Notes under the pieces: generated by a model | Told to the model about the DNA's origin: nothing | Databases searched by the model: none | What the model saw: only the letters and a program-made list of their open reading frames with translations | Part shown: one piece after another, positions 3,662-36,887 of the stretch | How the letters are laid out: every line of letters begins with the position of its first letter | Position numbering within the stretch: position 1 is the stretch's first letter | Position numbers and translations under genes: made by a program | Assembly (NCBI GenBank): GCA_045611605.1 | Contig: JAZKXN010000092.1 | Coordinates: forward strand, 3,674-67,673 | Direction of reading: 5' to 3' | Length of the DNA stretch: 64,000 nucleotides | DNA from: Acutalibacteraceae bacterium | Lineage (GTDB): Bacteria; Bacillota; Clostridia; Oscillospirales; Acutalibacteraceae

Positions 3662-4780
3662 ATGATTTATTTTGATAATGCCGCCACGAGCGGCCATAAG
3701 CCGCAGTCGGTAATAAATGCGGTTAATTTTTCACTAAAAAATTTGTCGGCAAATCCGGGAAGAAGCGGTCATACACTGTCAGTAAAAACCGCCGATATGG
3801 TGTATAACACACGCCAAAAATTGGCGGACTTTTTTGGCGCTGACGGTGCAGAACAGGTGGTATTTACCCAAAACTGCACACAAAGTCTTAATTTTGTTAT
3901 CAAGGGTGTTTTGAAAAAGGGCGACCATGTAATAGTTTCAAATCTTGAACACAACGCTGTAATGCGCCCACTTATAAAAACGGGTGTAAATTTTGATACG
4001 GTAACAGTTTTTGAAGACGATAATGATACGATTTCGGACTTCGAAAATAAAATTAAGTCTAATACAAAGCTTGTAATAATGACAGCGGCTTCTAATGTCA
4101 CAGGCCAAATATTGCCATTCGCTGAAATAGGTAATATTTGTCACAAAAGGGGCATATATTTTTGCTTAGACGGTGCACAAGGTGCGGGTGTTTTGCCAAT
4201 AAATATGCAGAGTATGCATATAGATTACCTTTGTATTGCACCGCATAAAGGGTTATACGCACCTATGGGAATAGGTGTTTTAATTTGCCGAAAACCCATA
4301 GAAAATACCATAATCGAAGGCGGAACAGGCAGTTCTTCACTTGATTACAGACAACCTGTAATATTGCCCGAAATGCTAGAAAGCGGTACAGTTAATGTAC
4401 CTGCAATAGCAGGTTTATCGGCTGGTATAGATTTTGTTAAGCAAATGGGAATTGAGAATATTTATAAAAAAGAAATACGGCTTTGCAAAATGTTCTATGA
4501 TGCACTTTTGAAAAACAAAAAAGTTGTGCTTTACACCAAAGAGCCGCAAATGCATAAATATGCAGCGGTTTTGCCGTTTAATTTGCGCGGTTTTACAAGT
4601 GATAGCGCGGCAGAGTTTTTAAATAAAAATTCAATTGCATTAAGGGCGGGACTTCACTGTGCGCCATCTGCCCACAAGACCCTATCTACAACCGAATTTG
4701 GAACACTTCGTGCAAGCTTTTCGGTGTTTAATAATGAAAGTGAAGTTTTGCGGGCAATAAGCACGATAAAAAATGTTTAA
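3662..4780 (+). CDS. Class V aminotransferase, cysteine desulfurase / selenocysteine lyase family
   Basis: 372 aa with a PLP-lysine context (APHK) and the C-terminal active-site motif LRAGLHCAPSAH, typical of group II desulfurases. Confidence 0.8.
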   Translation: MIYFDNAATSGHKPQSVINAVNFSLKNLSANPGRSGHTLSVKTADMVYNTRQKLADFFGADGAEQVVFTQNCTQSLNFVIKGVLKKGDHVIVSNLEHNAVMRPLIKTGVNFDTVTVFEDDNDTISDFENKIKSNTKLVIMTAASNVTGQILPFAEIGNICHKRGIYFCLDGAQGAGVLPINMQSMHIDYLCIAPHKGLYAPMGIGVLICRKPIENTIIEGGTGSSSLDYRQPVILPEMLESGTVNVPAIAGLSAGIDFVKQMGIENIYKKEIRLCKMFYDALLKNKKVVLYTKEPQMHKYAAVLPFNLRGFTSDSAAEFLNKNSIALRAGLHCAPSAHKTLSTTEFGTLRASFSVFNNESEVLRAISTIKNV

Positions 4781-9612: not shown

Positions 9613-10315
9613 AACAATAGTTTCGGCTTTGTTCCCAAATGTTTGCGTGGGTTGCGGCGCAATTATACCCGAAGGCGAGCATTTGTGTGAATATTGTACT
9701 GAAATGGCTGGGAAGGTTGATTTTACAAAAGCTTGTCGCCGTTGTGGTATGCCGAAAAAAGAATGTATGTGTTCTAAACGCGTTTTTCATTTCAGCGGTT
9801 GTGCTGCGCCGTTTTATAATGACGGCGTTATGCAAAATGCAATGTATTCACTAAAATTCGCGCGAAAGGAATATATTGCAAAATTCTTTGCAGAACGAAT
9901 GGCAATAACGGTTAAGTCGGCTTATAGCGATATTGATTTTGATGTTGTTATCTTTGTTCCAATGTCATTATCTAAAAAGTTAAAGCGTGGGTTTAATCAG
10001 TCTGAACTTTTGGCAAAGCGACTTTCCAGAATATTAAAACTTCCGCTTTGTTATGATTTGTTAATGGTCGGCAAGAAATCGGCTGTACAGCACAAATTAA
10101 CTTTTGATGAACGCTTTGAAAATGTTAAGGGTAAATTTGTTGCAAATAAAAAATATAACCTTAATGGCAAAACCGTTTTACTTGTTGATGATATTAAAAC
10201 TACAGGCGCCACACTAGATGAATGTGCAAAACAGCTTATGCTTTTGGGCGCCGACGAAGTTTATTGTATAACGGGTCTTATGACCGCAAAAACCAAGAAG
10301 AAGGAAGGAAAATAA
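9590..10315 (+). CDS. comFC: ComF family protein (ComFC-type phosphoribosyltransferase)
   Basis: N-terminal CxxC...CxxC zinc-finger-like motifs and a C-terminal PRT motif (VLLVDDIKTTGATL). An alternative start lies at 9599. Confidence 0.8.
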   Translation: MLIMAVFKTIVSALFPNVCVGCGAIIPEGEHLCEYCTEMAGKVDFTKACRRCGMPKKECMCSKRVFHFSGCAAPFYNDGVMQNAMYSLKFARKEYIAKFFAERMAITVKSAYSDIDFDVVIFVPMSLSKKLKRGFNQSELLAKRLSRILKLPLCYDLLMVGKKSAVQHKLTFDERFENVKGKFVANKKYNLNGKTVLLVDDIKTTGATLDECAKQLMLLGADEVYCITGLMTAKTKKKEGK

Positions 10316-11337
10316 TGGCTACCGATATTGGTATAGATTTAGGCTCTTCTAAAACTGTAATTTTTTCAAGCTCTAAGGTTGTGCTTGAATTACCGAGCGT
10401 TGTAACGGTTGATAGTGAAAACTGGGAACCGATTTATTACGGCGAAAAAGCAAAACAGACGATTGGCAGAACACCCGACAGTATGTTAAGCGTTTTTCCA
10501 ATTGAACATGGTGTTATTTCTGATTACGATTTAACCGAGCTTATGCTTAAGGATTATATGCAACAGGCATTTGGTAATAAAATTTTGCGTCCGCGTATTA
10601 TTGCTACGCTTCCTGCAGGTCTTACCGAGCTTCAACACCACTCACTTTCAAATGTGGTTGAAGCGGCAGGCGGTAGGAATATTACGGTTGTTGAAGGTCC
10701 CCTTGCAATTGCTTTTGGGTTGGGGCTTGATTTTTCAAAACCCCATGGCACACTTATTGTCGATATCGGCGCAGGTACTACCGATGTTGCAGTTATCTCA
10801 ATGGGGGGGATTGCGGCTTGTGACTCTTTTAAGACCGCTTCATTCGATTTTGATGCGCAGATTATTCGTTATGTAAGGCACGAATATAATATCGAAATTG
10901 GCCCGTTAACTGCAGAAGCAATTAAAATCAAAGTTGGCGCGGCAATAAAGCGTGATATCGAAATTGCAATGGTGGCAAAGGGAAGAAATATATTTTCTGG
11001 TCTTCCCGAAAGTTTTGAAATTACTTCAGGCGAAGTGTATGATGCAATTAACGATACAATTAAGCAGATTCTTAACGCTATTCGTAATGTACTTAATAAA
11101 ACCGACCCTGATTTAGTGGCGGATATTATGAACGACGGAATGTATCTTGCAGGCGGTGGCTCTAAACTTAGCGGTTTTGCTGAAAGAATTGCAGACTTTT
11201 TGAAAATCAAGGTTCATCAGATGGACGACCCTGCACATAGTGTGGTTAAAGGCGCGGCGGTAGCCATTAAAAAGCCGGAGCTTTTAAAGAATGTTGACTA
11301 TCAGATGAGATCGTTAAAAGAGCTTGAAATAGAATAA
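10315..11337 (+). CDS. MreB/Mbl family actin-like protein (divergent paralog)
   Basis: 340 aa with actin-fold phosphate motifs (DIGIDLGSS..., DIGAGTTDVAV, LAGGGSKL). The TAATG junction overlaps the comFC stop by 1 nt. Confidence 0.8.
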   Translation: MATDIGIDLGSSKTVIFSSSKVVLELPSVVTVDSENWEPIYYGEKAKQTIGRTPDSMLSVFPIEHGVISDYDLTELMLKDYMQQAFGNKILRPRIIATLPAGLTELQHHSLSNVVEAAGGRNITVVEGPLAIAFGLGLDFSKPHGTLIVDIGAGTTDVAVISMGGIAACDSFKTASFDFDAQIIRYVRHEYNIEIGPLTAEAIKIKVGAAIKRDIEIAMVAKGRNIFSGLPESFEITSGEVYDAINDTIKQILNAIRNVLNKTDPDLVADIMNDGMYLAGGGSKLSGFAERIADFLKIKVHQMDDPAHSVVKGAAVAIKKPELLKNVDYQMRSLKELEIE

Positions 11338-11387
11338 ATTGTTATAATTTAACACTTTAAAACGCTAAAGTTTGTACAAAATTACGA

Positions 11388-11416
11388 TTGACACATCCAC
11401 TTAATAGGAGTAATAT
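11388..11416 (+). promoter_or_regulatory. Sigma-A type promoter of the aromatic amino-acid operon leader
   Basis: TTGACA (11388-11393), a 17-nt spacer, then TAATAT (11411-11416). Confidence 0.6.
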
Positions 11417-11447
11417 ACACTATATCATCAAAAAAGGAGTGGACAGG

Positions 11448-11522
11448 TTGTTCGTAAAGTCTTATTTTCGATTTTATTATTATTTTAAAAATACGGACTG
11501 TCTGTACACTATTGAAGCATAA
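11448..11522 (+). CDS. Candidate leader peptide, Tyr/Phe-rich (MFVKSYFRFYYYFKNTDCLYTIEA)
   Basis: SD AAGGAG (11434-11439) lies 8 nt before TTG. The ORF has 24 codons, of which 5 are Tyr and 4 are Phe. It lies between the promoter and an intrinsic terminator, upstream of pheA/tyrA/aro genes. Confidence 0.55.
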   Translation: MFVKSYFRFYYYFKNTDCLYTIEA

Positions 11523-11551
11523 TCTTGATTATGTTTTTTAATAATACATTC

Positions 11552-11608
11552 AGCCCGTAGTTATCATATCCTAGTTTTAGGTGTGGTTATTACGGGCTTT
11601 TTATTTTT
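11552..11608 (+). terminator. Intrinsic terminator (attenuator) in the aro operon leader
   Basis: A stem of about 19 bp pairs 11552-11570 with 11580-11598 (core GCCCGTA/TACGGGC). It is followed by TTTTTATTTTT and sits 13 nt before the first operon gene. Confidence 0.75.
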
Positions 11609-11620
11609 AGAAATGGGGAA

Positions 11621-12808
11621 ATGGTAATGATTAATGAAAAAATGATGGAACTTGGTAAGGTTCGTTCGGTAATTCGTGAAATATTTGAATATGGTAATAA
11701 GCGCAGAAGTGAAATCGGTGCAGAAAATGTGCTTGATTTCAGTCTTGGTAACCCAAGTATTCCCGCGCCCGAAAAGGTAACAGAAATAATGGCGCGTCTT
11801 ATAAAAGAAACCGACCCTGTAAAGCTTCACGGTTATACATCTGCTCAAGGTGACCCCACTGTTCGCAAGGCAATTAGCGACGGTATTACTGAACGCTTTG
11901 GTATGAAAGCAAGTGCAGATTTAATTTATATGACCTGTGGTGCGGCAGCTTCATTAACAATTACACTTAATGCGCTTGTTAACGCAGGCGATGAAGTTAT
12001 TGCATTAGCGCCTTTTTTCCCTGAATATCGTGTGTTTGCTGAAAAAGCAGGTGCCAATTTTAAGGTTGTAAAATGCCGTGAAAGCGATTTTCAGATTGAT
12101 TTTGCTGCTTTAGAAAGCGCAATTACCAAAAACACCAAAGCGATTATTGTTAACTCACCTAACAACCCCACAGGTGTTGTGTTGTCTGAAGAAACGGTTA
12201 TTGAACTTTCTGAGCTTTTATTTAAAAAGCAAGAAGAATTTGGTACCCAAATTTACATAATTTGTGATGAACCATATCGTGAGTTAGCTTACGGTGTAGA
12301 TGTGCCGTATATTCCTAATTTTTACGATAACACAATCGTTTGCTATTCATTCAGTAAATCATTGTCATTACCGGGTGAGAGAATTGGTTATATTTTTGTT
12401 TCACCTAAAATTCAAATTGCAACTGATATTTATGCCGCGGTTTGCGGCGCGGGCAGAGCACTTGGCTATGTTTGCGCACCAAGCCTTTTGCAATATACCG
12501 TAAAGGAATGTATTGGTCTTACAGGCGATGTTGATGCATATAAGCGTAATCGCGATATTTTATATAATGCATTGACCGAATATGGATATAGCTGTGCAAA
12601 GCCTGACGGTGCTTTTTATCTATTTATGAAATCACCCGAAAGCGATGCAAAAGCATTTTGCGAAAAAGCTAAAAAGTATGAGCTTTTGCTTGTGCCTAGT
12701 GACAGTTTTGGTTATGAAGGCTATGTTCGTATAAGTTATTGCGTAAGTGAAAAACAAATTGTTAAATCTTTACCTGCCTTTAAGGCGCTTATGGAGGAAT
12801 ATAAATGA
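11621..12808 (+). CDS. PLP-dependent aminotransferase class I/II (aspartate/aromatic aminotransferase)
   Basis: 395 aa with NPTG and SFSKSLSLPGERIGY (PLP-lysine) motifs. First gene of the aro operon. Confidence 0.85.
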   Translation: MVMINEKMMELGKVRSVIREIFEYGNKRRSEIGAENVLDFSLGNPSIPAPEKVTEIMARLIKETDPVKLHGYTSAQGDPTVRKAISDGITERFGMKASADLIYMTCGAAASLTITLNALVNAGDEVIALAPFFPEYRVFAEKAGANFKVVKCRESDFQIDFAALESAITKNTKAIIVNSPNNPTGVVLSEETVIELSELLFKKQEEFGTQIYIICDEPYRELAYGVDVPYIPNFYDNTIVCYSFSKSLSLPGERIGYIFVSPKIQIATDIYAAVCGAGRALGYVCAPSLLQYTVKECIGLTGDVDAYKRNRDILYNALTEYGYSCAKPDGAFYLFMKSPESDAKAFCEKAKKYELLLVPSDSFGYEGYVRISYCVSEKQIVKSLPAFKALMEEYK

Positions 12809-13893
12809 CCGACCTTGAAAAAGCAAGGCAAAAAATCAACCAAGTTGATACTGAAATGCGCGAGCTTTTCTTAGAAAGAATGAAAGCTTCAAAAATTGTT
12901 GCAGAATATAAAAGACTTCACGGTATGCAGGTGTTTGACCCACAGCGTGAAGCAGAAGTTCTTGCAAGGAATAGTGCCGCTTTTGGTGATGAAGAACTTA
13001 AAGCATATTATGTTGATTTTATTACTCATAATATGGAAATTTCCAAACGCTATCAGCACCGTTTACTTGAAGGTATGAAGGTTGCATTCAGCGGTGTTAC
13101 GGGTGCATTTGCAAATATTGCCGCTAACAAAGTTTTTCCCGATGCTGAAGCCGTACCTTATCCTGATTTTAAATCGGCTTATAATTCTGTGGTTGACGGT
13201 GTTTGTGACTGTGTAATTTTACCGATTGAAAACAGTTTTAACGGTGATGTCGGACAGGTAATGGACCTTGCGTTTTTCGGCCCGCTTTATATTAACGGTG
13301 TTTATGACATTGCGGTTGTGCAAAATCTTTTAGCGAATAAGGGTGCTGTACTTGAAGATATTAAAGAAGTAATAAGTCATCCGCAAGCCTTGGGTCAATG
13401 TAATGAATATATTAAAAAACACGGGTTTAAAGCTATTGAAGCGGTTAATACTGCGGTTGCAGCTAAAATGGTTGCTGATAGCGGCAGATTAGATATTGCT
13501 GCCATTGCCAGCGAAGAAGCTGCAGAACAATTCGGACTTTTAAAGCTAGAAGCTCATATTAATCAAAGCAGTAATAATACAACTCGTTTTGCGGTATTTT
13601 CACGCACAGCTAAAGCGCCGTCTTCGGCGGATAATCATTTTATTTTGTTGTTTACAGTTACTAACGAAGCGGGCTCACTTGGTAAAGCAATTTCTATTAT
13701 CGGTGAAAACGGTTTTAACCTTAAAGCACTAAAGAGCCGCCCCACAAAAGAACTTATCTGGAACTATTACTTTTTTGTCGAAGGTGAAGGTAATATTAAC
13801 AGCGATAAGGGTAAAAAAATGCTTTGTGAACTTAAAGAAAAGTGCAGTGATTTAAGAATCATCGGCAACTTCGAAAAGGAAGTTATTTTATGA
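12805..13893 (+). CDS. pheA: Bifunctional chorismate mutase / prephenate dehydratase
   Basis: N-terminal CM_2-like helix region, a PDT domain with a TRF motif (NTTRFAVF) and a C-terminal ACT domain (SRPTK). ATGA overlap with the upstream gene. Confidence 0.9.
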   Translation: MTDLEKARQKINQVDTEMRELFLERMKASKIVAEYKRLHGMQVFDPQREAEVLARNSAAFGDEELKAYYVDFITHNMEISKRYQHRLLEGMKVAFSGVTGAFANIAANKVFPDAEAVPYPDFKSAYNSVVDGVCDCVILPIENSFNGDVGQVMDLAFFGPLYINGVYDIAVVQNLLANKGAVLEDIKEVISHPQALGQCNEYIKKHGFKAIEAVNTAVAAKMVADSGRLDIAAIASEEAAEQFGLLKLEAHINQSSNNTTRFAVFSRTAKAPSSADNHFILLFTVTNEAGSLGKAISIIGENGFNLKALKSRPTKELIWNYYFFVEGEGNINSDKGKKMLCELKEKCSDLRIIGNFEKEVIL

Positions 13894-14882
13894 TTTTAAC
13901 AACCAAAACTTCGGTCGGACAGTATGATATTGTTATTAAACGCGGTGTTTTAAGTGGTTTAAAAGAGTATTTAAATCTTGATCGAAAGGTGCTTATTGTT
14001 ACCGATAGCGGTGTACCCGAAATATACGCTAAAACGGTAGCGGCACAGTGTAAAGCAGGATATATTTACACCTTTGCGCAAGGGGAAGAAAGTAAAAATT
14101 TCGATACATATCAGTCAATTTTAAAACAAATGCTTGCCAATGGTTTCACGCGGAGTGACTGTGTGGTTGCAGTTGGTGGCGGTGTTGTGGGCGATATGGC
14201 GGGTTTTGCCGCGGCTTCGTTTATGCGCGGTGTTGATTTTTATAATATTCCCACAACGGTGCTTTCTCAGGTTGATTCTTCAATTGGGGGTAAGGTTGCA
14301 ATTGATTTTTGCGGTGTTAAAAATATTGTGGGGGCTTTTTATCCGCCAAAGGCGGTTATAATTGATGCCGACACCTTAAAAACATTACCCAAGCGTCAAG
14401 TTTCAAACGGTCTTTGCGAAGCACTTAAAATGGCAGCAACATTCGACAGTGAATTCTTTAATCTTTTTTCCAAAAACGATTTGGATATTGATTATATTAT
14501 CGAACAAAGCCTTCGCCTTAAAAAAACGGTAGTTGAAGAAGATGAAAAAGAACAGGGTGTGCGTAAAGTATTAAACTTTGGCCACACTATCGGTCATGCA
14601 ATTGAAAGCATAAATGTTGGCAGGCTTTATCACGGTGAATGTGTTGGTCTTGGTATGCTTTACTGTTCAAGTAATGATGTTAAAAACAAAATTGAAACTG
14701 CACTTAAAAGACTTGGCTTACCAACTGAATGTGAAATAAATGCTGATGAGATTATTGATTTTATGTCCCACGATAAAAAGAAATCGGGGGATAGTATTTC
14801 GGTGATTTGGGTCAATGAAATTGGCAGTTATGAAATTAGAAAAATGACTTTATCTGAACTTAAAGAAGTGATTTTAAAATGA
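13890..14882 (+). CDS. aroB: 3-dehydroquinate synthase
   Basis: 330 aa with GGGVVGDMAGFAAA and metal-binding His motifs. ATGA overlap with the upstream gene. Confidence 0.9.
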   Translation: MILTTKTSVGQYDIVIKRGVLSGLKEYLNLDRKVLIVTDSGVPEIYAKTVAAQCKAGYIYTFAQGEESKNFDTYQSILKQMLANGFTRSDCVVAVGGGVVGDMAGFAAASFMRGVDFYNIPTTVLSQVDSSIGGKVAIDFCGVKNIVGAFYPPKAVIIDADTLKTLPKRQVSNGLCEALKMAATFDSEFFNLFSKNDLDIDYIIEQSLRLKKTVVEEDEKEQGVRKVLNFGHTIGHAIESINVGRLYHGECVGLGMLYCSSNDVKNKIETALKRLGLPTECEINADEIIDFMSHDKKKSGDSISVIWVNEIGSYEIRKMTLSELKEVILK

Positions 14883-15970
14883 AAAACAGTTTTTTGCAAA
14901 ATGTAACGGTTACCGTTTTTGGTGAAAGTCATGGCGCAGGTATTGGCGCTGTGCTTGACGGTATGCCTGCGGGGATTCCCGTGAATGAAGAGTTTATTAA
15001 ACATCAGCTGTGTCTTCGTAAGCCCACAGGCGATATTTCTACACCGCGCGTTGAAGCGGATAATTATATAATTTACAGCGGTGTTTTTAATGGTTATACA
15101 ACCGGCACGCCGATTTGTATCGTTATCCCAAATGAAAATACAAATTCAAAGGATTATGAATCCGATAGGTTTTTAGCCCGTCCTTCCCATGCCGATTATG
15201 TTGCCTTTAAAAAGTATAACGGCTTTGAAGATTATCGTGGTGGGGGTCATTTTAGTGGAAGAGTAACTGCAGGTATTGTTGCAGTTGGCGCTATTGCAAT
15301 TTCGGCTTTAAAGCAAAAGGGCATAAAAATCGGCACACATATTTCAAGGTGCGCCGGTGTTAACGATGCAAAATTCAGTAATTACGAGACTGAAATAGAT
15401 TTGCTAAATAATATGCAGTTTGCCGTTTTGGATAACGCAAAGGGCGAAGAAATGCAGAATGCAATTAAAGCCGCAAAAGCTGATTGTGATAGTGTTGGCG
15501 GTGTTCTGGAAACGGCGGTTATTGGTATGCCTATCGGTGTGGGTGAGCCTTGGTTTGACACACTTGAAGGTCTTATTTCTCATGCGCTTTTTTCAATCCC
15601 CGCAATAAAGGGTGTTGAGTTTGGCTTGGGTTTTGATATAGCAGATTTAATGGGTTCGCAGGCTAATGACCTGTTTGAAATTAGTGATGGTAAAATTATA
15701 ACCAAAACCAATAATAACGGTGGTATAAACGGTGGTATTTCAAATGGTATGCCGCTTGTGTTCCGCTGTGCGGTTAAACCTACCCCTACCATTGCAAAAG
15801 AGCAGCAAACAGTTGATTTTAAAGAAAATATAAATACCACAATTGAATCGGCTGGCAGACACGATCCGTGTATTGTACATCGTGCGCGTGTTGTGGTTGA
15901 TAGTATGGTTGCAATCACACTTTGTGATGCTTTGACGACTAAATACGGAACAGACTGGTGGCTTAAATGA
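14879..15970 (+). CDS. aroC: Chorismate synthase
   Basis: 363 aa with FGESHG and RPSHAD signature motifs. ATGA overlap with the upstream gene. Confidence 0.95.
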   Translation: MKNSFLQNVTVTVFGESHGAGIGAVLDGMPAGIPVNEEFIKHQLCLRKPTGDISTPRVEADNYIIYSGVFNGYTTGTPICIVIPNENTNSKDYESDRFLARPSHADYVAFKKYNGFEDYRGGGHFSGRVTAGIVAVGAIAISALKQKGIKIGTHISRCAGVNDAKFSNYETEIDLLNNMQFAVLDNAKGEEMQNAIKAAKADCDSVGGVLETAVIGMPIGVGEPWFDTLEGLISHALFSIPAIKGVEFGLGFDIADLMGSQANDLFEISDGKIITKTNNNGGINGGISNGMPLVFRCAVKPTPTIAKEQQTVDFKENINTTIESAGRHDPCIVHRARVVVDSMVAITLCDALTTKYGTDWWLK

Positions 15971-17202
15971 AATACGGTCTTATTGGTGAAAAATTAGGTC
16001 ACAGTTTTTCTAAAATCGTTCATTCAAGGCTTGCAGATTATGAATATGAGTTATTAGAAATTGCAAAAACCGATTTAGAAACTTTTATGAAATCGCGTGA
16101 TTTTTGCGGTATAAATGTAACCATTCCATATAAAGAAGCAGTTATTCCGTATCTTAATTTTATTAGCAATGAAGCTGAGAAAATTGGTGTGGTTAATACT
16201 GTTATTAACAAAAACGGTAAACTTTACGGATATAATACCGATTTTTTTGGTCTTAAGCATCTTATCGAAACTAATGGTATCGAAATTTGCGGTAAAACTG
16301 TTTTAATTTTAGGAAGTGGTGGTACTTCGAAAACTGCAAAAGCGGTTTGCGAAAGTATGGGTGCTAATGACATTTTTATAGTTTCTCGTTCGGGTGGTAA
16401 CGGTGCTATATCTTATGATGATGCGCACAATAAAAATGCTCAGGTTATAATTAATACCACCCCTTGCGGAATGTTTCCAAAAACTGATGAGCAACCAATT
16501 TCGTTAGATGGTTTTAAGAATTTGGAAGCGGTAGTAGATGTTATTTATAATCCTTTAAGAACAAAGCTTGTGCTGGATGCTCAAAATCGTGGTATAAAAG
16601 CGGTTGGCGGATTATATATGCTTTATGGACAAGCGGTTAAAGCGGCAGAAATTTTTACCGATAATGAAATTAACGCCGATGTTTTTAATGAAATTTTAAA
16701 AGAAAAACAAAACCTTGTGCTTATTGGTATGCCATCTTGTGGTAAGACAACCCTTGGTAAGTTGCTCGCCGATGAGTTTAATAAAGAATTTGTTGATACC
16801 GATATCGAAATCGAAAAACTGACAGGAATGACAATACCCGAAATTTTCGAAAAATACGGTGAAGATTATTTTAGAAATTTAGAAGCACAGATTATTAGTG
16901 ATTTATCTGTAAAACAGTCACTCGTGGTTGCTACGGGCGGCGGTGCGGTTTTAAGGCGAGAAAATATTGATGCACTAAGACAAAACGGTAAAATAATTTT
17001 TATTGACCGACCGCTTAGTATGCTTATAACAACCGACGACCGACCCTTGTCAAGCAGCCGTGAAGCGTTGGAAAATCGCTATTTTGAAAGATATGCAACT
17101 TATTGTTTTTCGTGCGATGTACGAATTAATGCAGATGGTGATATAAACTCTAATTTTGAAAAGGTAAAAGAAGGCTTTTTAAATGAAAATTTTGGTAATT
17201 AA
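15967..17202 (+). CDS. aroE/aroK: Fused shikimate dehydrogenase / shikimate kinase
   Basis: The N-terminal ~250 aa is AroE-like (GLIGEKLGHSFSK, GSGGTSK). The C-terminal ~160 aa carries a Walker A motif (GMPSCGKTT) and an AroK-like fold pattern. Confidence 0.9.
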   Translation: MKYGLIGEKLGHSFSKIVHSRLADYEYELLEIAKTDLETFMKSRDFCGINVTIPYKEAVIPYLNFISNEAEKIGVVNTVINKNGKLYGYNTDFFGLKHLIETNGIEICGKTVLILGSGGTSKTAKAVCESMGANDIFIVSRSGGNGAISYDDAHNKNAQVIINTTPCGMFPKTDEQPISLDGFKNLEAVVDVIYNPLRTKLVLDAQNRGIKAVGGLYMLYGQAVKAAEIFTDNEINADVFNEILKEKQNLVLIGMPSCGKTTLGKLLADEFNKEFVDTDIEIEKLTGMTIPEIFEKYGEDYFRNLEAQIISDLSVKQSLVVATGGGAVLRRENIDALRQNGKIIFIDRPLSMLITTDDRPLSSSREALENRYFERYATYCFSCDVRINADGDINSNFEKVKEGFLNENFGN

Positions 17203-17611
17203 CGGCGTTAATCTTAATATGTTAGGTGTTCGTGAACCGCAAATTTACGGTAACAAAACCTATAAAGCTTTGTGCACTTATATCAAAGCGTATGCCAAGC
17301 AAAAAGGGGTTAAAGTTTCATTTTTTCAGTCAAACTGTGAAGGCGATTTAGTTACCGCAATTCAAAAAGCATATCAGAAATTTGACGGTATTGTTATAAA
17401 TCCTGGCGCTTATACCCACACAAGTATTGCACTTTTAGATGCTGTAAAATCGGTGGGTGTGCCGACAGTTGAAGTACATATTTCTGATGTCGAAAGCCGT
17501 GAAACTTTCCGTCAGATAAGCTATATCCGTTCTGCTTGTGTTGCAACAATAAGCGGTAAAGGTTTTGAAGGTTATAATGAAGCAATTGATATATTAACGG
17601 TGAAAAAATAA
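17183..17611 (+). CDS. aroQ: Type II 3-dehydroquinate dehydratase
   Basis: 142 aa reading MKILVINGVNLNMLGVREPQIYG...INPGAYTHTS. Confidence 0.95.
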   Translation: MKILVINGVNLNMLGVREPQIYGNKTYKALCTYIKAYAKQKGVKVSFFQSNCEGDLVTAIQKAYQKFDGIVINPGAYTHTSIALLDAVKSVGVPTVEVHISDVESRETFRQISYIRSACVATISGKGFEGYNEAIDILTVKK

Positions 17612-18831
17612 TGATAGTTAAGTTTACCCCTTCTGCCGCGTTTGGCAGAGTAAAAGCACCCCCTTCAAAAAGTATGGCGCACCGACTTTTAATTTGCGGT
17701 GCCTTTTCTAAGGAGAGTGTAATAAGCGGTGTTGCTTTTTCGGAAGATATTAAGGCAACGCTCGGTTGTTTAAAAGTTTTAGGCGCGAATATCAGTATCG
17801 AAAACGATATTGTTACTCTTGGCGGTATTGATATAAATAAAGCCCCTGAATCTACAAAACTTTTTTGTAATGAAAGCGGAAGCACTTTAAGGTTTTTAAT
17901 ACCTATTTGTTTGCTTTTTGGCGGTTATTTTAACTTAAGCGGTACTCAGCGTCTTATGGAACGCTCATTATCGGTTTATGAAGACATTTGCAAAAGCCAA
18001 GGTATTTCTTTCACTAAGGGGAAAACAGACCTTGCCTTGTGTGGAAAATTAAATGCGGGGAAATATACCGTTCGCGGTGATATTTCCAGTCAGTTTATAA
18101 GTGGCTTAATGTTCGCTCTTCCACTTTTAGAGCAAGACAGTATTATTGAAATCACAAACGGATTAGAAAGCGGTTCTTATCTTAATTTAACCATAAAAGC
18201 TCTTGCGGAATTTGGTGTAAGAATTACCCGTTATGACGAGAGAACCTTTTATATTAAGGGCGGACAAACCTATAAAAACCGCAATTTGAAGGTTGAAGGC
18301 GATTTTTCAAATGCGGCATTTTTTGAAGCCTTTAATTTGATTGGCGGTAATGTTGCAGTATCAAATCTTTCTAGCATGAGTGCACAGGGTGACCGAGTTT
18401 ATAAAGAAATGATGGTTGAAATTGCAAACGGGTGCCCTATCCTTGATATAAGTGACTTCCCCGATTTGGCGCCTATTCTTATAACCTGTGCCGCCCTTAA
18501 AAACGGTGCAAGATTTATAGGTACGCATCGCCTAAAAATTAAGGAAAGTGACCGCGGTGCCGCAATGGCGGAAGAACTTTTAAAATTTGGTTGTGAAATA
18601 AAAGTTTTAGAAAACGAAATAATTGTACCTAAAGTTGAATTACATTCGCCTGCATTACCGTTATTTTCACATAATGACCACCGAATTGTTATGTCACTTT
18701 CGGTGTTAGCGTCGTGCTATGGTGGCGAAATTTATGGTGCAGAAGCAGTGAGTAAAAGCTTTCCCGATTATTTTGAAAAGCTCAATTCTATTGGTATTAA
18801 GACAGAGATGGTGACTTTAAATGAAGCTTAG
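17611..18831 (+). CDS. aroA: 3-phosphoshikimate 1-carboxyvinyltransferase (EPSP synthase)
   Basis: 406 aa with a PPSKSMAHR motif and the class II-like short form. Its start shares 1 nt with the aroQ stop. Confidence 0.95.
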   Translation: MIVKFTPSAAFGRVKAPPSKSMAHRLLICGAFSKESVISGVAFSEDIKATLGCLKVLGANISIENDIVTLGGIDINKAPESTKLFCNESGSTLRFLIPICLLFGGYFNLSGTQRLMERSLSVYEDICKSQGISFTKGKTDLALCGKLNAGKYTVRGDISSQFISGLMFALPLLEQDSIIEITNGLESGSYLNLTIKALAEFGVRITRYDERTFYIKGGQTYKNRNLKVEGDFSNAAFFEAFNLIGGNVAVSNLSSMSAQGDRVYKEMMVEIANGCPILDISDFPDLAPILITCAALKNGARFIGTHRLKIKESDRGAAMAEELLKFGCEIKVLENEIIVPKVELHSPALPLFSHNDHRIVMSLSVLASCYGGEIYGAEAVSKSFPDYFEKLNSIGIKTEMVTLNEA

Positions 18832-19678
18832 TAAAGACTTAAATATATTAATTGTTGGTCTTGGCCTTTTGGGTGGTAGCTATGCAAGAACCCTTAAACA
18901 GAAAGGCTTTAAAGTGTCGGCAATTACTAAAAATCAAGACGATATTGATTTTGCCCTTGAAAACGACATTATTGATGATGGTACAACCGAAATTGATGCC
19001 GAGATTATCGGTAATGCTGACCTAGTGATTTTTGCGCTTTATCCACACATTTTTGTTGAATGGATTACCGAAAATCAATCGCTTTTAAAAAGTGGCGCAA
19101 TCATTACCGATGTTACAGGTGTAAAGGGCAGTATTGTTTATAAAATTCAGGATATGTTACGCCCTGATATCGAATTTATTGCTGCCCACCCAATGGCTGG
19201 TAGGGAAATGAGCGGTGTTCAGAATTCTGACGGCGTTAATTTTTTAGATGCTAACTATATTGTTGTTCCGACCGATAAAAACACACATAAGGCGATAGAA
19301 CTTTGCTGCGAACTTGGTGAAACATTGGGCTTTAAGCAAATTGCCGAGCTTTCGGTTGAAAGTCACGATAAAATGATTGCCTTTCTGTCACAGCTTACAC
19401 ACTGTATTGCTGTATCCTTAATGTGTTGTAATAACATTTCGGGTATGGAGTATTATACAGGTGACTCTTTTAGAGATTTAACCCGAATTGCTCAAATTAA
19501 CGACGAAATGTGGAGTGAACTGTTTTTAAATAACAAAGATTATTTGTTATATGAAATGGACTGCTTTAGAAAATCATTTGATGAATTGTACGATAAAATT
19601 AAAGATGAAGACAGGGAAGGTATGCGTGAAATGATGCGCCTTTCCACTTATCGCAGAAAGAGATTTGATAAAAAATGA
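18821..19678 (+). CDS. tyrA: Prephenate dehydrogenase
   Basis: 285 aa with a Rossmann motif (VGLGLLGGS) and an HPMAG motif. Confidence 0.9.
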   Translation: MKLSKDLNILIVGLGLLGGSYARTLKQKGFKVSAITKNQDDIDFALENDIIDDGTTEIDAEIIGNADLVIFALYPHIFVEWITENQSLLKSGAIITDVTGVKGSIVYKIQDMLRPDIEFIAAHPMAGREMSGVQNSDGVNFLDANYIVVPTDKNTHKAIELCCELGETLGFKQIAELSVESHDKMIAFLSQLTHCIAVSLMCCNNISGMEYYTGDSFRDLTRIAQINDEMWSELFLNNKDYLLYEMDCFRKSFDELYDKIKDEDREGMREMMRLSTYRRKRFDKK

Positions 19679-20706
19679 ATTTAGATTTCAAAAGAAAATT
19701 ACCCGTACCGCAACAAATTAAGACTCGCTATCCCGTTACTGACGAATTGGCTAAAATTAAAGCACAGCGCGATGCGGAAGTTGAAGCAATTTTCAAGGGT
19801 GAAAGCGATAAATTTATTCTTGTTATCGGCCCTTGCTCGGCCGATAACAAAGAAAGCGTGCTTAATTATATTGGCAGACTTAAAAAAGTTGAAGCGGAAG
19901 TTAAAGATAAAATTTTAATTATGCCCCGTATTTATACTAACAAACCCCGTACAACGGGTGACGGATATAAGGGAATGCTTCATCAACCCGACCCTGATAA
20001 AACCCCTGATATGCTCGAAGGCATTATTGCAATCCGTGATTTGCATATGTCTGCTCTTAAGGACTACGGTTTCACCTGTGCTGATGAAATGCTTTACCCC
20101 GATAATTATCGTTATCTATCTGACCTTCTCGGTTATGTGGCTGTTGGTGCGCGTTCGGTTGAAAATCAGCAACACCGTTTAACTGCAAGCGGTATTGATG
20201 TACCTGTTGGTATGAAAAACCCCACAGGTGGTGATTTGTCGGTTATGATGAATTCAATCACTGCGGCACAACATTCTCACACCTTTATTTATCGCGGTTG
20301 GGAAGTTACAAGCGCGGGTAATCCCTTGGCGCACGCAATTATGCGCGGATATATCGATTATGCGGGCAAATGTGTTTCTAACTATCATTATGAAGATTTG
20401 CAAAATCTTTATAATCTCTATGCGAAATCAAATCTTGTAAACCCTGCGGCAGTTATTGACTGTAACCACGCTAATTCCGGCAAAAAATATCTTGAACAAA
20501 TCCGTATTGCCAAGGATGTGGTTTATAGCTGTAATCATAATAAGGATATAAGAAAAATGGTTAAGGGTCTTATGATTGAAAGCTATATTGAAGACGGTGC
20601 ACAAAAAATAGGCGAAGGCGTATATGGTAAATCAATTACCGACCCGTGTCTAGGCTGGGAAAAGAGTAAAGACCTTATTTACAAAATTGCAGATACACTT
20701 AAATAA
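19675..20706 (+). CDS. aroF: 3-deoxy-7-phosphoheptulonate (DAHP) synthase, class I
   Basis: 343 aa with IGPCS and KPRT motifs. Last gene of the operon, with an ATGA overlap. Confidence 0.9.
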   Translation: MNLDFKRKLPVPQQIKTRYPVTDELAKIKAQRDAEVEAIFKGESDKFILVIGPCSADNKESVLNYIGRLKKVEAEVKDKILIMPRIYTNKPRTTGDGYKGMLHQPDPDKTPDMLEGIIAIRDLHMSALKDYGFTCADEMLYPDNYRYLSDLLGYVAVGARSVENQQHRLTASGIDVPVGMKNPTGGDLSVMMNSITAAQHSHTFIYRGWEVTSAGNPLAHAIMRGYIDYAGKCVSNYHYEDLQNLYNLYAKSNLVNPAAVIDCNHANSGKKYLEQIRIAKDVVYSCNHNKDIRKMVKGLMIESYIEDGAQKIGEGVYGKSITDPCLGWEKSKDLIYKIADTLK

Positions 20707-36119: not shown

Positions 36120-36449
36120 ATGAATTTTGAATTTTTAACACTTGCTGATAAAAATCCCGGCGGTCTTAATATGATTTGGATTATTTTGGTATATGCAGTG
36201 CTTTTCGGTGCAATGTATCTTATCTTTATCCGTCCTAACCGCAAAAAGCAAAAAGAAGAACAAAAAATGCGTGAAAATTTGCAGATTGGTGATGAAATTG
36301 TTACCATCGGCGGTATTTACGGTCGTGTTATTTCTTTAAAGGAAGACAGCATGGTTATTGAATCTAAAGCTGACCGCAGCAAAATGACAATTGCTCGTTG
36401 GGCTTTACAGCAAAATCTTACTGTTCACGACGAAGTAGCTAAAAAATAA
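36120..36449 (+). CDS. yajC: Preprotein translocase subunit YajC
   Basis: 109 aa with one TM helix, then RPNRKKQKE...LQIGDEIVTIGGIYGRV, the YajC signature. Confidence 0.85.
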   Translation: MNFEFLTLADKNPGGLNMIWIILVYAVLFGAMYLIFIRPNRKKQKEEQKMRENLQIGDEIVTIGGIYGRVISLKEDSMVIESKADRSKMTIARWALQQNLTVHDEVAKK

Positions 36450-36461
36450 GTAATAAAATAT

Positions 36462-36500
36462 GTCCCTTCCGAATAGACTTTATCGGGAGGGACTTGTTTT
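36462..36500 (+). terminator. Terminator-like hairpin after yajC that overlaps the SD of the next gene
   Basis: A 10-bp stem (GTCCCTTCCG/CGGGAGGGAC) with a 12-nt loop, then TTGTTTT, directly followed by ATG at 36501. Confidence 0.7.
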
Positions 36501-36887
36501 ATGCCTAAAAAATTAGATTATATATTTTTGCTTAAGATTTTAATTATTCTTGTGTTAACTACGGTTTTGTCGATGTTTTTGTTTGCCGCGGTTTTGTATT
36601 TTTTAGAAGGCGGTTATGAATATTCACCGCTTTTTGCATCAATATCGTCAGGTGTCGGCTGTTTTGCGGCATCGCTTTATGCTTCTAAAAAAATAGGGCA
36701 AAAGGGACTGCTGGTAGGTAGCATTATCGGTGGTATCTGTTTTATTATAATAACACTTGTGAGCCTTATGGCAAGTAAGGATATTTTTACTGTTAACACG
36801 CTTTTTAAACTGATTATTATAATGCTTTTATCATTTATCGGCGGTGTGCTTGGGGTTAATTCAAAACAAAATCAAAAGTACATATAA
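36501..36887 (+). CDS. Small integral membrane protein (TIGR04086/YrzE-like, tentative)
   Basis: 128 aa with about four hydrophobic segments. It occupies the position after yajC. Confidence 0.6.
   Translation: MPKKLDYIFLLKILIILVLTTVLSMFLFAAVLYFLEGGYEYSPLFASISSGVGCFAASLYASKKIGQKGLLVGSIIGGICFIIITLVSLMASKDIFTVNTLFKLIIIMLLSFIGGVLGVNSKQNQKYI

Follow-up and report, generated by a model that had tools for sequence, protein, structure and literature searches.

The 64,000-nucleotide stretch of Acutalibacteraceae contig JAZKXN010000092.1 analysed here, referred to as the window, contains an intergenic region (11338-11620) between an mreB-like gene (10222-11337) and a co-directional cluster of nine genes. 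This cluster is a Phe/Tyr and shikimate operon. It begins with a gene for a class I/II aminotransferase, followed by pheA, encoding a chorismate mutase-prephenate dehydratase (CM-PDT), aroB, aroC, an aroE-aroK fusion, aroQ (type II dehydroquinase), aroA, tyrA (prephenate dehydrogenase), and a DAHP synthase gene, with no trp genes among the nine. The fusion is a single open reading frame (ORF; 15967-17202) in which the N-terminal domain of shikimate dehydrogenase is joined to shikimate kinase. The intergenic region carries a promoter, a short ORF rich in Phe and Tyr codons, and an intrinsic terminator (Table 1). This leader is very probably a ribosome-mediated transcription attenuator, sensing charged tRNA-Phe and tRNA-Tyr and controlling read-through into the operon, as its sequence, predicted folding, and conservation in related species suggest.

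Table 1. Features of the leader and the downstream operon, in positions of the window.
Feature	Position	Strand	Details
Sigma-70-type promoter	11388-11416	+	TTGACA 11388-11393, 17 nt, TAATAT 11411-11416
Shine-Dalgarno sequence AAGGAG of the leader ORF	11434-11439	+	8 nt before the TTG start at 11448
Region 1, 5' arm of hairpin 1:2 (putative anti-antiterminator)	11438-11456	+	From minimum free energy folds
Leader ORF, 24 codons plus stop, MFVKSYFRFYYYFKNTDCLYTIEA	11448-11522	+	ORF, start codon, and frame kept in 38/38 full leaders
Regulatory codon run YFRFYYYF, proposed ribosome stall site	11463-11486	+	Phe/Tyr in 7/8 codons
Region 2, codons 16-21, UACGGACUGUCUGUACACU	11492-11510	+	Alternative partners are region 1 or region 3
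Hairpin B, antiterminator apex	11514-11537	+	10 bp, loop UUGA; from the window fold
Region 3	11545-11561	+	11545-11559 pairs with region 2; 11552-11561 is the terminator basal 5' arm
Intrinsic terminator	11552-11608	+	Hairpin 11552-11598 plus U-tract TTTTTATTTTT; region 4 is 11589-11598; RNAfold
Operon proposed to be regulated, nine genes	11621-20706	+	Gene order in the text

The promoter is also returned by a promoter scan, matching at 10/12 positions, and transcription would start near 11423. The first gene, encoding the aminotransferase, probably starts at ATG 11627 (MINEK...) and not at the first ATG, 11621, because matches to homologues begin at query residues 2-3 and an SD-like GGGGA (11615-11619) is found 7 nt from 11627. 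The original prediction for this locus had described the near-consensus promoter, the Shine-Dalgarno (SD) sequence, the TTG-initiated, Phe/Tyr-rich ORF of 24 codons without Trp, and an operon with pheA and tyrA lacking trp genes. Each of these was recovered in the same place, and its start of the first gene at 11621 is corrected here.

Phe or Tyr account for nine of the 24 residues of the leader peptide, including seven of the eight encoded by codons 6-13, and Trp is absent. Such a stretch is unique across all six frames of the window, and 20 of 20,000 shuffled leaders (0.1%) contain one. This bears on a reading in which the region is non-regulatory, with the hairpin serving as the terminator of the mreB-like gene or as a constitutive structure in the 5' untranslated region and the Phe/Tyr ORF a by-product of AT-rich DNA. 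The window is 61% A+T, favouring TTT and TAT codons, and a simple scan finds no other terminator between the mreB-like gene and the promoter. However, the terminator lies downstream of a conserved promoter, the codon run is rare, and about 40 species share the ORF, its frame, and a covarying antiterminator. The non-regulatory reading is hence scarcely credible, and already largely refuted.

The entire leader folds with a z-score of -4.9 into three hairpins, namely 1:2, hairpin B, and the terminator. Hairpin 1:2 (P1) pairs 11438-11456 with 11492-11510 at an energy of -17.8 kcal/mol. Its 5' arm runs from the last bases of the SD through the TTG start to the end of codon 3, and its loop contains the Phe/Tyr run. 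The leader stop codon, UAA (11520-11522), is located in the 5' arm of hairpin B, 10 nt past region 2. A transcript without region 1 and ending before region 4 (11487-11565) forms one composite hairpin of -20.6 kcal/mol (z = -3.9). In this composite antiterminator, 11492-11506 of region 2 are paired with region 3 and hairpin B is stacked on top. The terminator hairpin consists of 10+6+4 bp with a UUUU loop, has an energy of -25.8 kcal/mol (z = -6.6, RNAfold), and is followed by UUUUUAUUUUU. As part of region 3 doubles as the terminator's basal 5' arm, the antiterminator and terminator are mutually exclusive. A small additional hairpin in the P1 loop of the window (AAGUC/GAUUU) showed no conservation and was dropped.

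These folds agree with the original prediction on the terminator hairpin and its U-tract, and largely on the antiterminator. The latter had been proposed as 11489-11500 with 11551-11562; the pairing exists but is longer than stated, extending over 11492-11506 with 11545-11559, and is further backed by compensatory changes and per-sequence folding in relatives. The reading of the leader as a switch stands, although it had missed that region 1 is the leader's own ribosome binding site (RBS) and start and that the stop codon is placed in the apical hairpin of the antiterminator.

Orthologous loci were collected by scanning one genome per species for the aminotransferase, which gave 80 loci with 63-93% identity. 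With few exceptions the loci stem from metagenome-assembled genomes of ruminant or human gut origin that carry the label Acutalibacteraceae, Oscillospiraceae, or Clostridia. A Phe/Tyr-rich mini-ORF is present 80-180 nt upstream of the aminotransferase in 37 of the 80 loci, and these leaders together with that of the window form the set of 38 full leaders to which the counts below refer. A covariance model, R1, built from the 38 leaders adds two leaders truncated at the edge of a contig (L035, L047) and a degenerate one (L063). R1 finds no second copy of the leader in the window or elsewhere in the loci. A 19-bit match at window 36438-36613 falls on the end of one gene, a terminator, and the beginning of an ORF for a membrane protein, and was rejected as noise. 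The degenerate leader (L063:620-815; R1 match of 35.6 bits) retains the promoter, SD, GTG start, and terminator. Its peptide, MPFSFNYEKKFSK, has only 4 Phe/Tyr residues, and the downstream pheA has shrunk to about 100 residues.

The leader ORF is conserved wherever the hairpin is. All 38 loci with a full terminator carry an in-frame, SD-preceded, Phe/Tyr-rich ORF, and a check suggested alongside the original prediction is thereby decided in its favour. The start codon is ATG in 17, TTG in 14, and GTG in 7 leaders, and a purine-rich SD (AAGGAG, GGGTG, or GGAGG) occupies the same place in the orthologues. A TTGACA-17-TAnAAT promoter is kept at an equal distance from the mini-ORF in nearly all leaders. 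Start codon and the conserved CGGAC core of region 2 are separated by 34, 37, 40, 43, or 46 nt, values that are all 1 mod 3. The leader frame is open in 38/38, and the other two frames contain stops in 26 and 34 of the 38.

Every leader peptide contains a mixed Phe/Tyr run, with both amino acids always represented and 5-8 Phe/Tyr codons, and Trp occurs in none. Over all leaders these codons are TTT (116), TAT (96), TAC (50), and TTC (27), with C at the third position only, and there is synonymous variation within the run. The run is often interrupted by a CGA (Arg) codon (Y F R F Y Y), at 11469-11471 in the window and in 23 of 34 distinct runs. No conserved pairing accounts for this codon, which may be slow-decoding or simply inherited.

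Outside the run the peptides vary strongly, as in MFGFKFFYFYFINADCLCTKKA, MKSFNSYYFYFYFNNADLNTCRKPYTA, MAGFYFYYFTSADCLNVD, and MKTNYFFYYFIVDCPYAL, and their length ranges from 17 to 27 aa. The conserved residues MF(V/G) and (A/T)DCLY coincide with regions 1 and 2 and are therefore explained by RNA pairing. These observations are relevant to the proposal that the mini-ORF encodes a functional small hydrophobic peptide, with the hairpins merely terminating or stabilising its short transcript. Conservation of an ORF with SD and start codon in about 40 species would fit such a peptide. However, neither sequence nor length is conserved beyond the Phe/Tyr run and the residues encoded by pairing. The stop codon is in or beside the apical hairpin of the antiterminator in most of the leaders, and the element precedes aro operons alone and is missing where they are gone. 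A functional peptide is highly improbable on these grounds.

Conservation of the pairings was counted on a MAFFT alignment (A1) made without reference to structure. Pairs were taken from the window fold and counted over the alignment, and each sequence was also folded individually. The core antiterminator is paired in 79.6% of cases vs. 17-41% with the partner slid, and one position displays a clean exchange between GC (20) and AU (11). In the extended antiterminator of 12 pairs, 88.5% of cells are paired vs. 30-45% when slid, both sides have changed in 8/12 pairs, and the observed score was reached by 0 of 500 shuffles. Helix 1:2 is paired at 77-85% with both-side changes in 9 pairs. For hairpin 1:2 and the terminator combined, pairing reaches 84%, and both partners have changed in 16 pairs. 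The basal helix of the terminator covaries as well, with CG<->UA exchanges at two positions in 7 and 10 sequences. RNAalifold run on the MAFFT alignment recovered just the terminator base and a small local hairpin.

Per-sequence folding gives the same picture. The 2:3 duplex has an energy of -11 to -22.5 kcal/mol in 38/38 leaders, with a mean z of -3.3 relative to shuffled region 2. The minimum free energy fold from region 2 through the terminator 5' arm, equivalent to the transcript before region 4 is made, is the composite antiterminator in 38/38. An apical hairpin like B is predicted in nearly all leaders, with differing sequences such as GGCGGA...UCCGCC (L056/L062). All pairings are kept despite divergent sequence, by GUUCGGGU:ACCUGAAC and GCGGACC:GGUCCGC in L048/L049 and by UUUUAUGUAAC:GUUCAUAAG in L056/L062.

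Helices 1:2, 2:3, and 3:4 are the best-supported part of the element, which could also be said in favour of a switch that does not involve the ribosome. In that case the same three helices would be set by, for example, a small-molecule ligand, an RNA-binding protein, or uncharged tRNA, and the mini-ORF would be incidental to a U/A-rich loop. Such a switch would account for the peptide residues dictated by pairing, and would be in keeping with the usual T-box, riboswitch, or protein-mediated attenuation in Firmicutes (PMC2494555, PMC9413887). However, the loop between regions 1 and 2 is of low complexity and variable in length, and contains no conserved structured aptamer. Its length changes in 3-nt steps, the SD, start, and open frame are universal while the other frames contain stops, and base changes in the Phe/Tyr codons obey codon positions. 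The codons also match the end products of the operon exactly, being Phe and Tyr and never Trp, and no T-box motif, (G/U)AG repeat array, or Rfam match is found in the leader, as detailed below. A switch without a ribosome is improbable in view of these points.

The Rfam scan found no family at gathering score anywhere in the window, and the leader does not belong to the curated leader families (Phe_leader, Trp_leader, His_leader, Leu_leader, Thr_leader, and the leu/phe leader). The sole leader-type match at E<=10 is Trp_leader, at 19.1 bits vs. a gathering score of 41, and lies over the terminator. Phe_leader was not reported in the leader even at E<=10. Weak matches to snoZ5 (minus strand, 28.6 bits), MicF, and SpF51 were rejected as AT-rich or terminator artefacts.

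A T-box is recognised by a Stem I with a specifier loop and by the conserved T-box sequence in the antiterminator bulge. No T-box was matched by Rfam even at E<=10, and the conserved AGGGUGGNACCGCG motif is absent within 3 mismatches; the scan and motif search thereby uphold the earlier claim that no T-box motif is present. TRAP-regulated leaders contain an array of about 9-11 (G/U)AG triplets spaced 2-3 nt apart. This leader has five such triplets, of which the longest properly spaced chain is 2, and a TRAP site was rejected.

The features of a ribosome-mediated attenuator are, by comparison, found throughout. A short ORF with SD and start codon is located between the promoter and the first gene, and contains a cluster of codons for the amino acid products of the operon itself (Phe/Tyr; pheA, tyrA). 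An intrinsic terminator, the hairpin of which was missed by a pattern scan, is positioned upstream of the first gene. The antiterminator uses bases of the terminator 5' arm, so that only one of the two can form, and the anti-antiterminator 1:2 is suitably placed for a presumed ribosome footprint. Every feature of this class that sequence can test is hence present, and the leader is assigned to it as a putative member.

The leader is also tied to aromatic biosynthesis. In 41/41 leader loci, including the window, pheA follows the aminotransferase (as a remnant in L063), and aroB is present wherever the contig reaches. A clade of loci with 76-80% identity (L010-L024, L026, L030, L033, L040) has no leader. 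There 3-6 nt separate the mreB-like gene from the start of the aminotransferase (around locus position 2490-2500), there is no trace of the promoter or leader, and neither pheA nor aroB is found downstream. This clade has lost or relocated its aro operon, and its aminotransferase now belongs to the transcription unit upstream. The absence of the leader from a clade without pheA and aroB indicates that the leader travels with the aromatic biosynthesis genes and not with the aminotransferase.

T-boxes were expected in leaderless relatives, and Rfam scans detected none in 40 such loci, most of which have lost the aro genes. The scans returned just tRNAs, tmRNA, 6S RNA, a group II intron fragment, and one unrelated S-adenosylmethionine (SAM) riboswitch. 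The riboswitch (L030:3274-3368, 74 bits) is directly downstream of the aminotransferase and therefore indicates a different gene neighbourhood at that locus. Unrelated matches in the flanks are a group II intron domain (L026:475-559), 6S RNA (L065:4826-5039, minus strand), and tmRNA (L073:1-209, minus strand).

A further sequence of possible regulatory relevance lies upstream of the promoter. Window positions 11354-11371 form a near-perfect palindrome, ACTTTAAA-ACGC-TAAAGT, ~17 nt upstream of the -35 box. CTTTAAA-N4-TTAAAG is found at the palindrome position in most leader-bearing loci, and also in L038, where the promoter is present and the attenuator absent. The palindrome is a candidate operator for a transcription factor, which would add a second layer of control.

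Taken together, ORF conservation, compensatory changes, per-sequence folding, and the absence of a T-box support the original prediction of a Phe/Tyr attenuator. In the proposed mechanism, ribosome loading on the leader RBS has to precede the synthesis of region 2. Without translation, hairpin 1:2 would form and hide the leader RBS, region 3 would remain free, and terminator 3:4 would form, setting the default to OFF. With ample Phe and Tyr, a ribosome translating the leader ORF would pass codons 6-13 and reach the stop codon. There it would cover region 2 and melt the 5' arm of hairpin B, preventing the antiterminator and leading to termination at about 11608. When Phe-tRNA or Tyr-tRNA is scarce, the ribosome would stall in YFRFYYYF, occupying the 1:2 loop and part of region 1. 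A ribosome stalled here would prevent 1:2 and leave region 2 exposed. Free region 2 would then pair with region 3, with hairpin B on top, before region 4 is transcribed. With the antiterminator formed, the terminator could not form and RNA polymerase would read into the operon.

Several points weigh against this mechanism. Only 5 nt separate the last Phe codon from region 2. A ribosome stalled at the end of the run would therefore partly mask region 2, and the model readily accounts only for stalls earlier in the run. The start codon in the window is TTG and is partly sequestered by hairpin 1:2. With region 4 included, 11487-11612 folds into the terminator at -36.2 kcal/mol, a stability that the antiterminator does not reach. 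Antitermination must therefore be kinetic, as in classical systems. The simple terminator scan flagged nothing in 10800-12200 and missed the hairpin, which RNAfold predicts to be strong and which a U-tract follows. Furthermore, transcription outruns translation in Bacillus subtilis, and this may be widespread (Johnson et al. 2020, as summarised in PMC7858274). If transcription is also uncoupled here, a pause of the polymerase in the leader would be required.

The sample and its exceptions also call for caution. Almost all of the relatives are known from metagenome-assembled genomes of uncultured organisms. As the 38 leaders share ancestry, the counts overstate the number of independent events, with roughly a dozen distinct leader types represented. 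In addition, five loci (L038, L067, L072, L077, L079) have the aminotransferase-pheA-aroB order without a leader. No known RNA element replaces it in the Rfam scans of these five. In L038 (2380-2500) the palindrome and promoter are kept, while the mini-ORF and terminator are absent. The unusual 139-nt gap between the aminotransferase and pheA in this locus (3683-3820) contains no relocated leader or recognisable element. L072 offers merely 180 nt of upstream sequence.

A more specific version of the attenuator is conceivable, though doubtful. Since hairpin 1:2 sequesters the leader RBS and start, only a ribosome loading within the first ~70 nt of transcription could influence the decision. The leader might then act as a single-round sensor of two amino acids, which would need programmed pausing of RNA polymerase and tight coupling of transcription and translation early in the transcript. 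The nearly invariant CGA codon in the Phe/Tyr run could be part of such a timing device. Runaway, that is uncoupled, transcription has been proposed as the norm for the phylum that contains the Clostridia. If the single-round sensor were true, the leader family would be a natural reporter of coupling in gut Clostridia.

A leader-peptide attenuator with Phe and Tyr codons appears to be conserved in about 40 gut species of the Acutalibacteraceae and Oscillospiraceae, outside Rfam, and would add a documented case of ribosome-mediated attenuation evolving independently in Clostridia. It predicts that Phe and Tyr are synthesised on demand in these largely uncultured gut bacteria. It also offers a natural test of near-promoter coupling of transcription and translation in Clostridia. 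Additionally, covariance model R1 and alignment A1 allow annotators to label these intergenic regions and their mini-ORFs.

The classical leader-peptide attenuators are those of E. coli, namely pheL-pheA, pheM-pheST, and trpL/hisL. Like pheL, trpL, and hisL, the present leader has a promoter-proximal short ORF with codons for the product, mutually exclusive 1:2, 2:3, and 3:4 pairings, and an intrinsic terminator. It further shares with pheL-pheA the downstream pheA and the proposed logic in which a stalled ribosome would lead to the antiterminator and a ribosome at the stop codon to the terminator. However, there is no homology in sequence or structure, and the Rfam leader families are unmatched. 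The codon run mixes Phe and Tyr about equally. Region 1 is the leader's own RBS and start, with the regulatory codons in the loop of 1:2 and not within region 1, and the stop codon is in the apical hairpin of the antiterminator. The operon also covers the whole shikimate pathway with pheA and tyrA, and the host belongs to the Clostridia.

A parallel in codon content is the aroR leader peptide upstream of aroF in C. glutamicum, which contains F-Y-F codons (Neshat et al. 2014, as summarised in PMC11802643). The reported response of aroR is to Phe and not to Tyr. From this account, both systems have a leader peptide with mixed Phe/Tyr codons and aromatic genes controlled, or here proposed to be controlled, through ribosome stalling. 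By the same description, and the comparison is by description only, aroR differs in being actinobacterial and in having only three regulatory codons, against 5-8 here. In Acholeplasma, uORFC-13-1 upstream of aroF is a candidate upstream ORF (uORF) with a promoter, RBS, Phe-coding U run, and adjacent terminator, and as described has no Tyr component and no three-helix switch (PMC8632094). It shares with the present leader a predicted uORF and terminator before a shikimate-pathway gene, both being bioinformatic predictions. Compared by description only, it differs in its mollicute host, another gene order, and at least one Phe codon.

Aromatic operons of Firmicutes are usually described as being under T-box leaders, TRAP, or repressors, and leu/phe leaders are known from Lactococcus lactis. 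Leader peptides for other amino acids occur sporadically in the phylum. His-leader attenuators are present in the Bacillus cereus group, Peptostreptococcaceae, and Erysipelotrichales (PMC9413887, PMC2965389), and a Leu-rich leader attenuates ilv-leu in S. aureus (PMC5794164). Together with the leu/phe leaders, they illustrate that classical leader-peptide attenuation can take the place of T-box or repressor control in this phylum. The present leader differs from the His, Leu, and leu/phe leaders in amino acid specificity or lineage, and none has been reported for aro operons of the Acutalibacteraceae or Oscillospiraceae. A full-text literature search returned no description of the present element or of any aromatic leader peptide in these two families.

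The mechanism is classical and adds no new regulatory principle, but neither this RNA family nor such a leader in this group of bacteria had been described. The present leader is set apart by the balanced run of Phe and Tyr codons, the use of the leader's own RBS and start as region 1, and the placement of the stop codon in the apical hairpin of the antiterminator.

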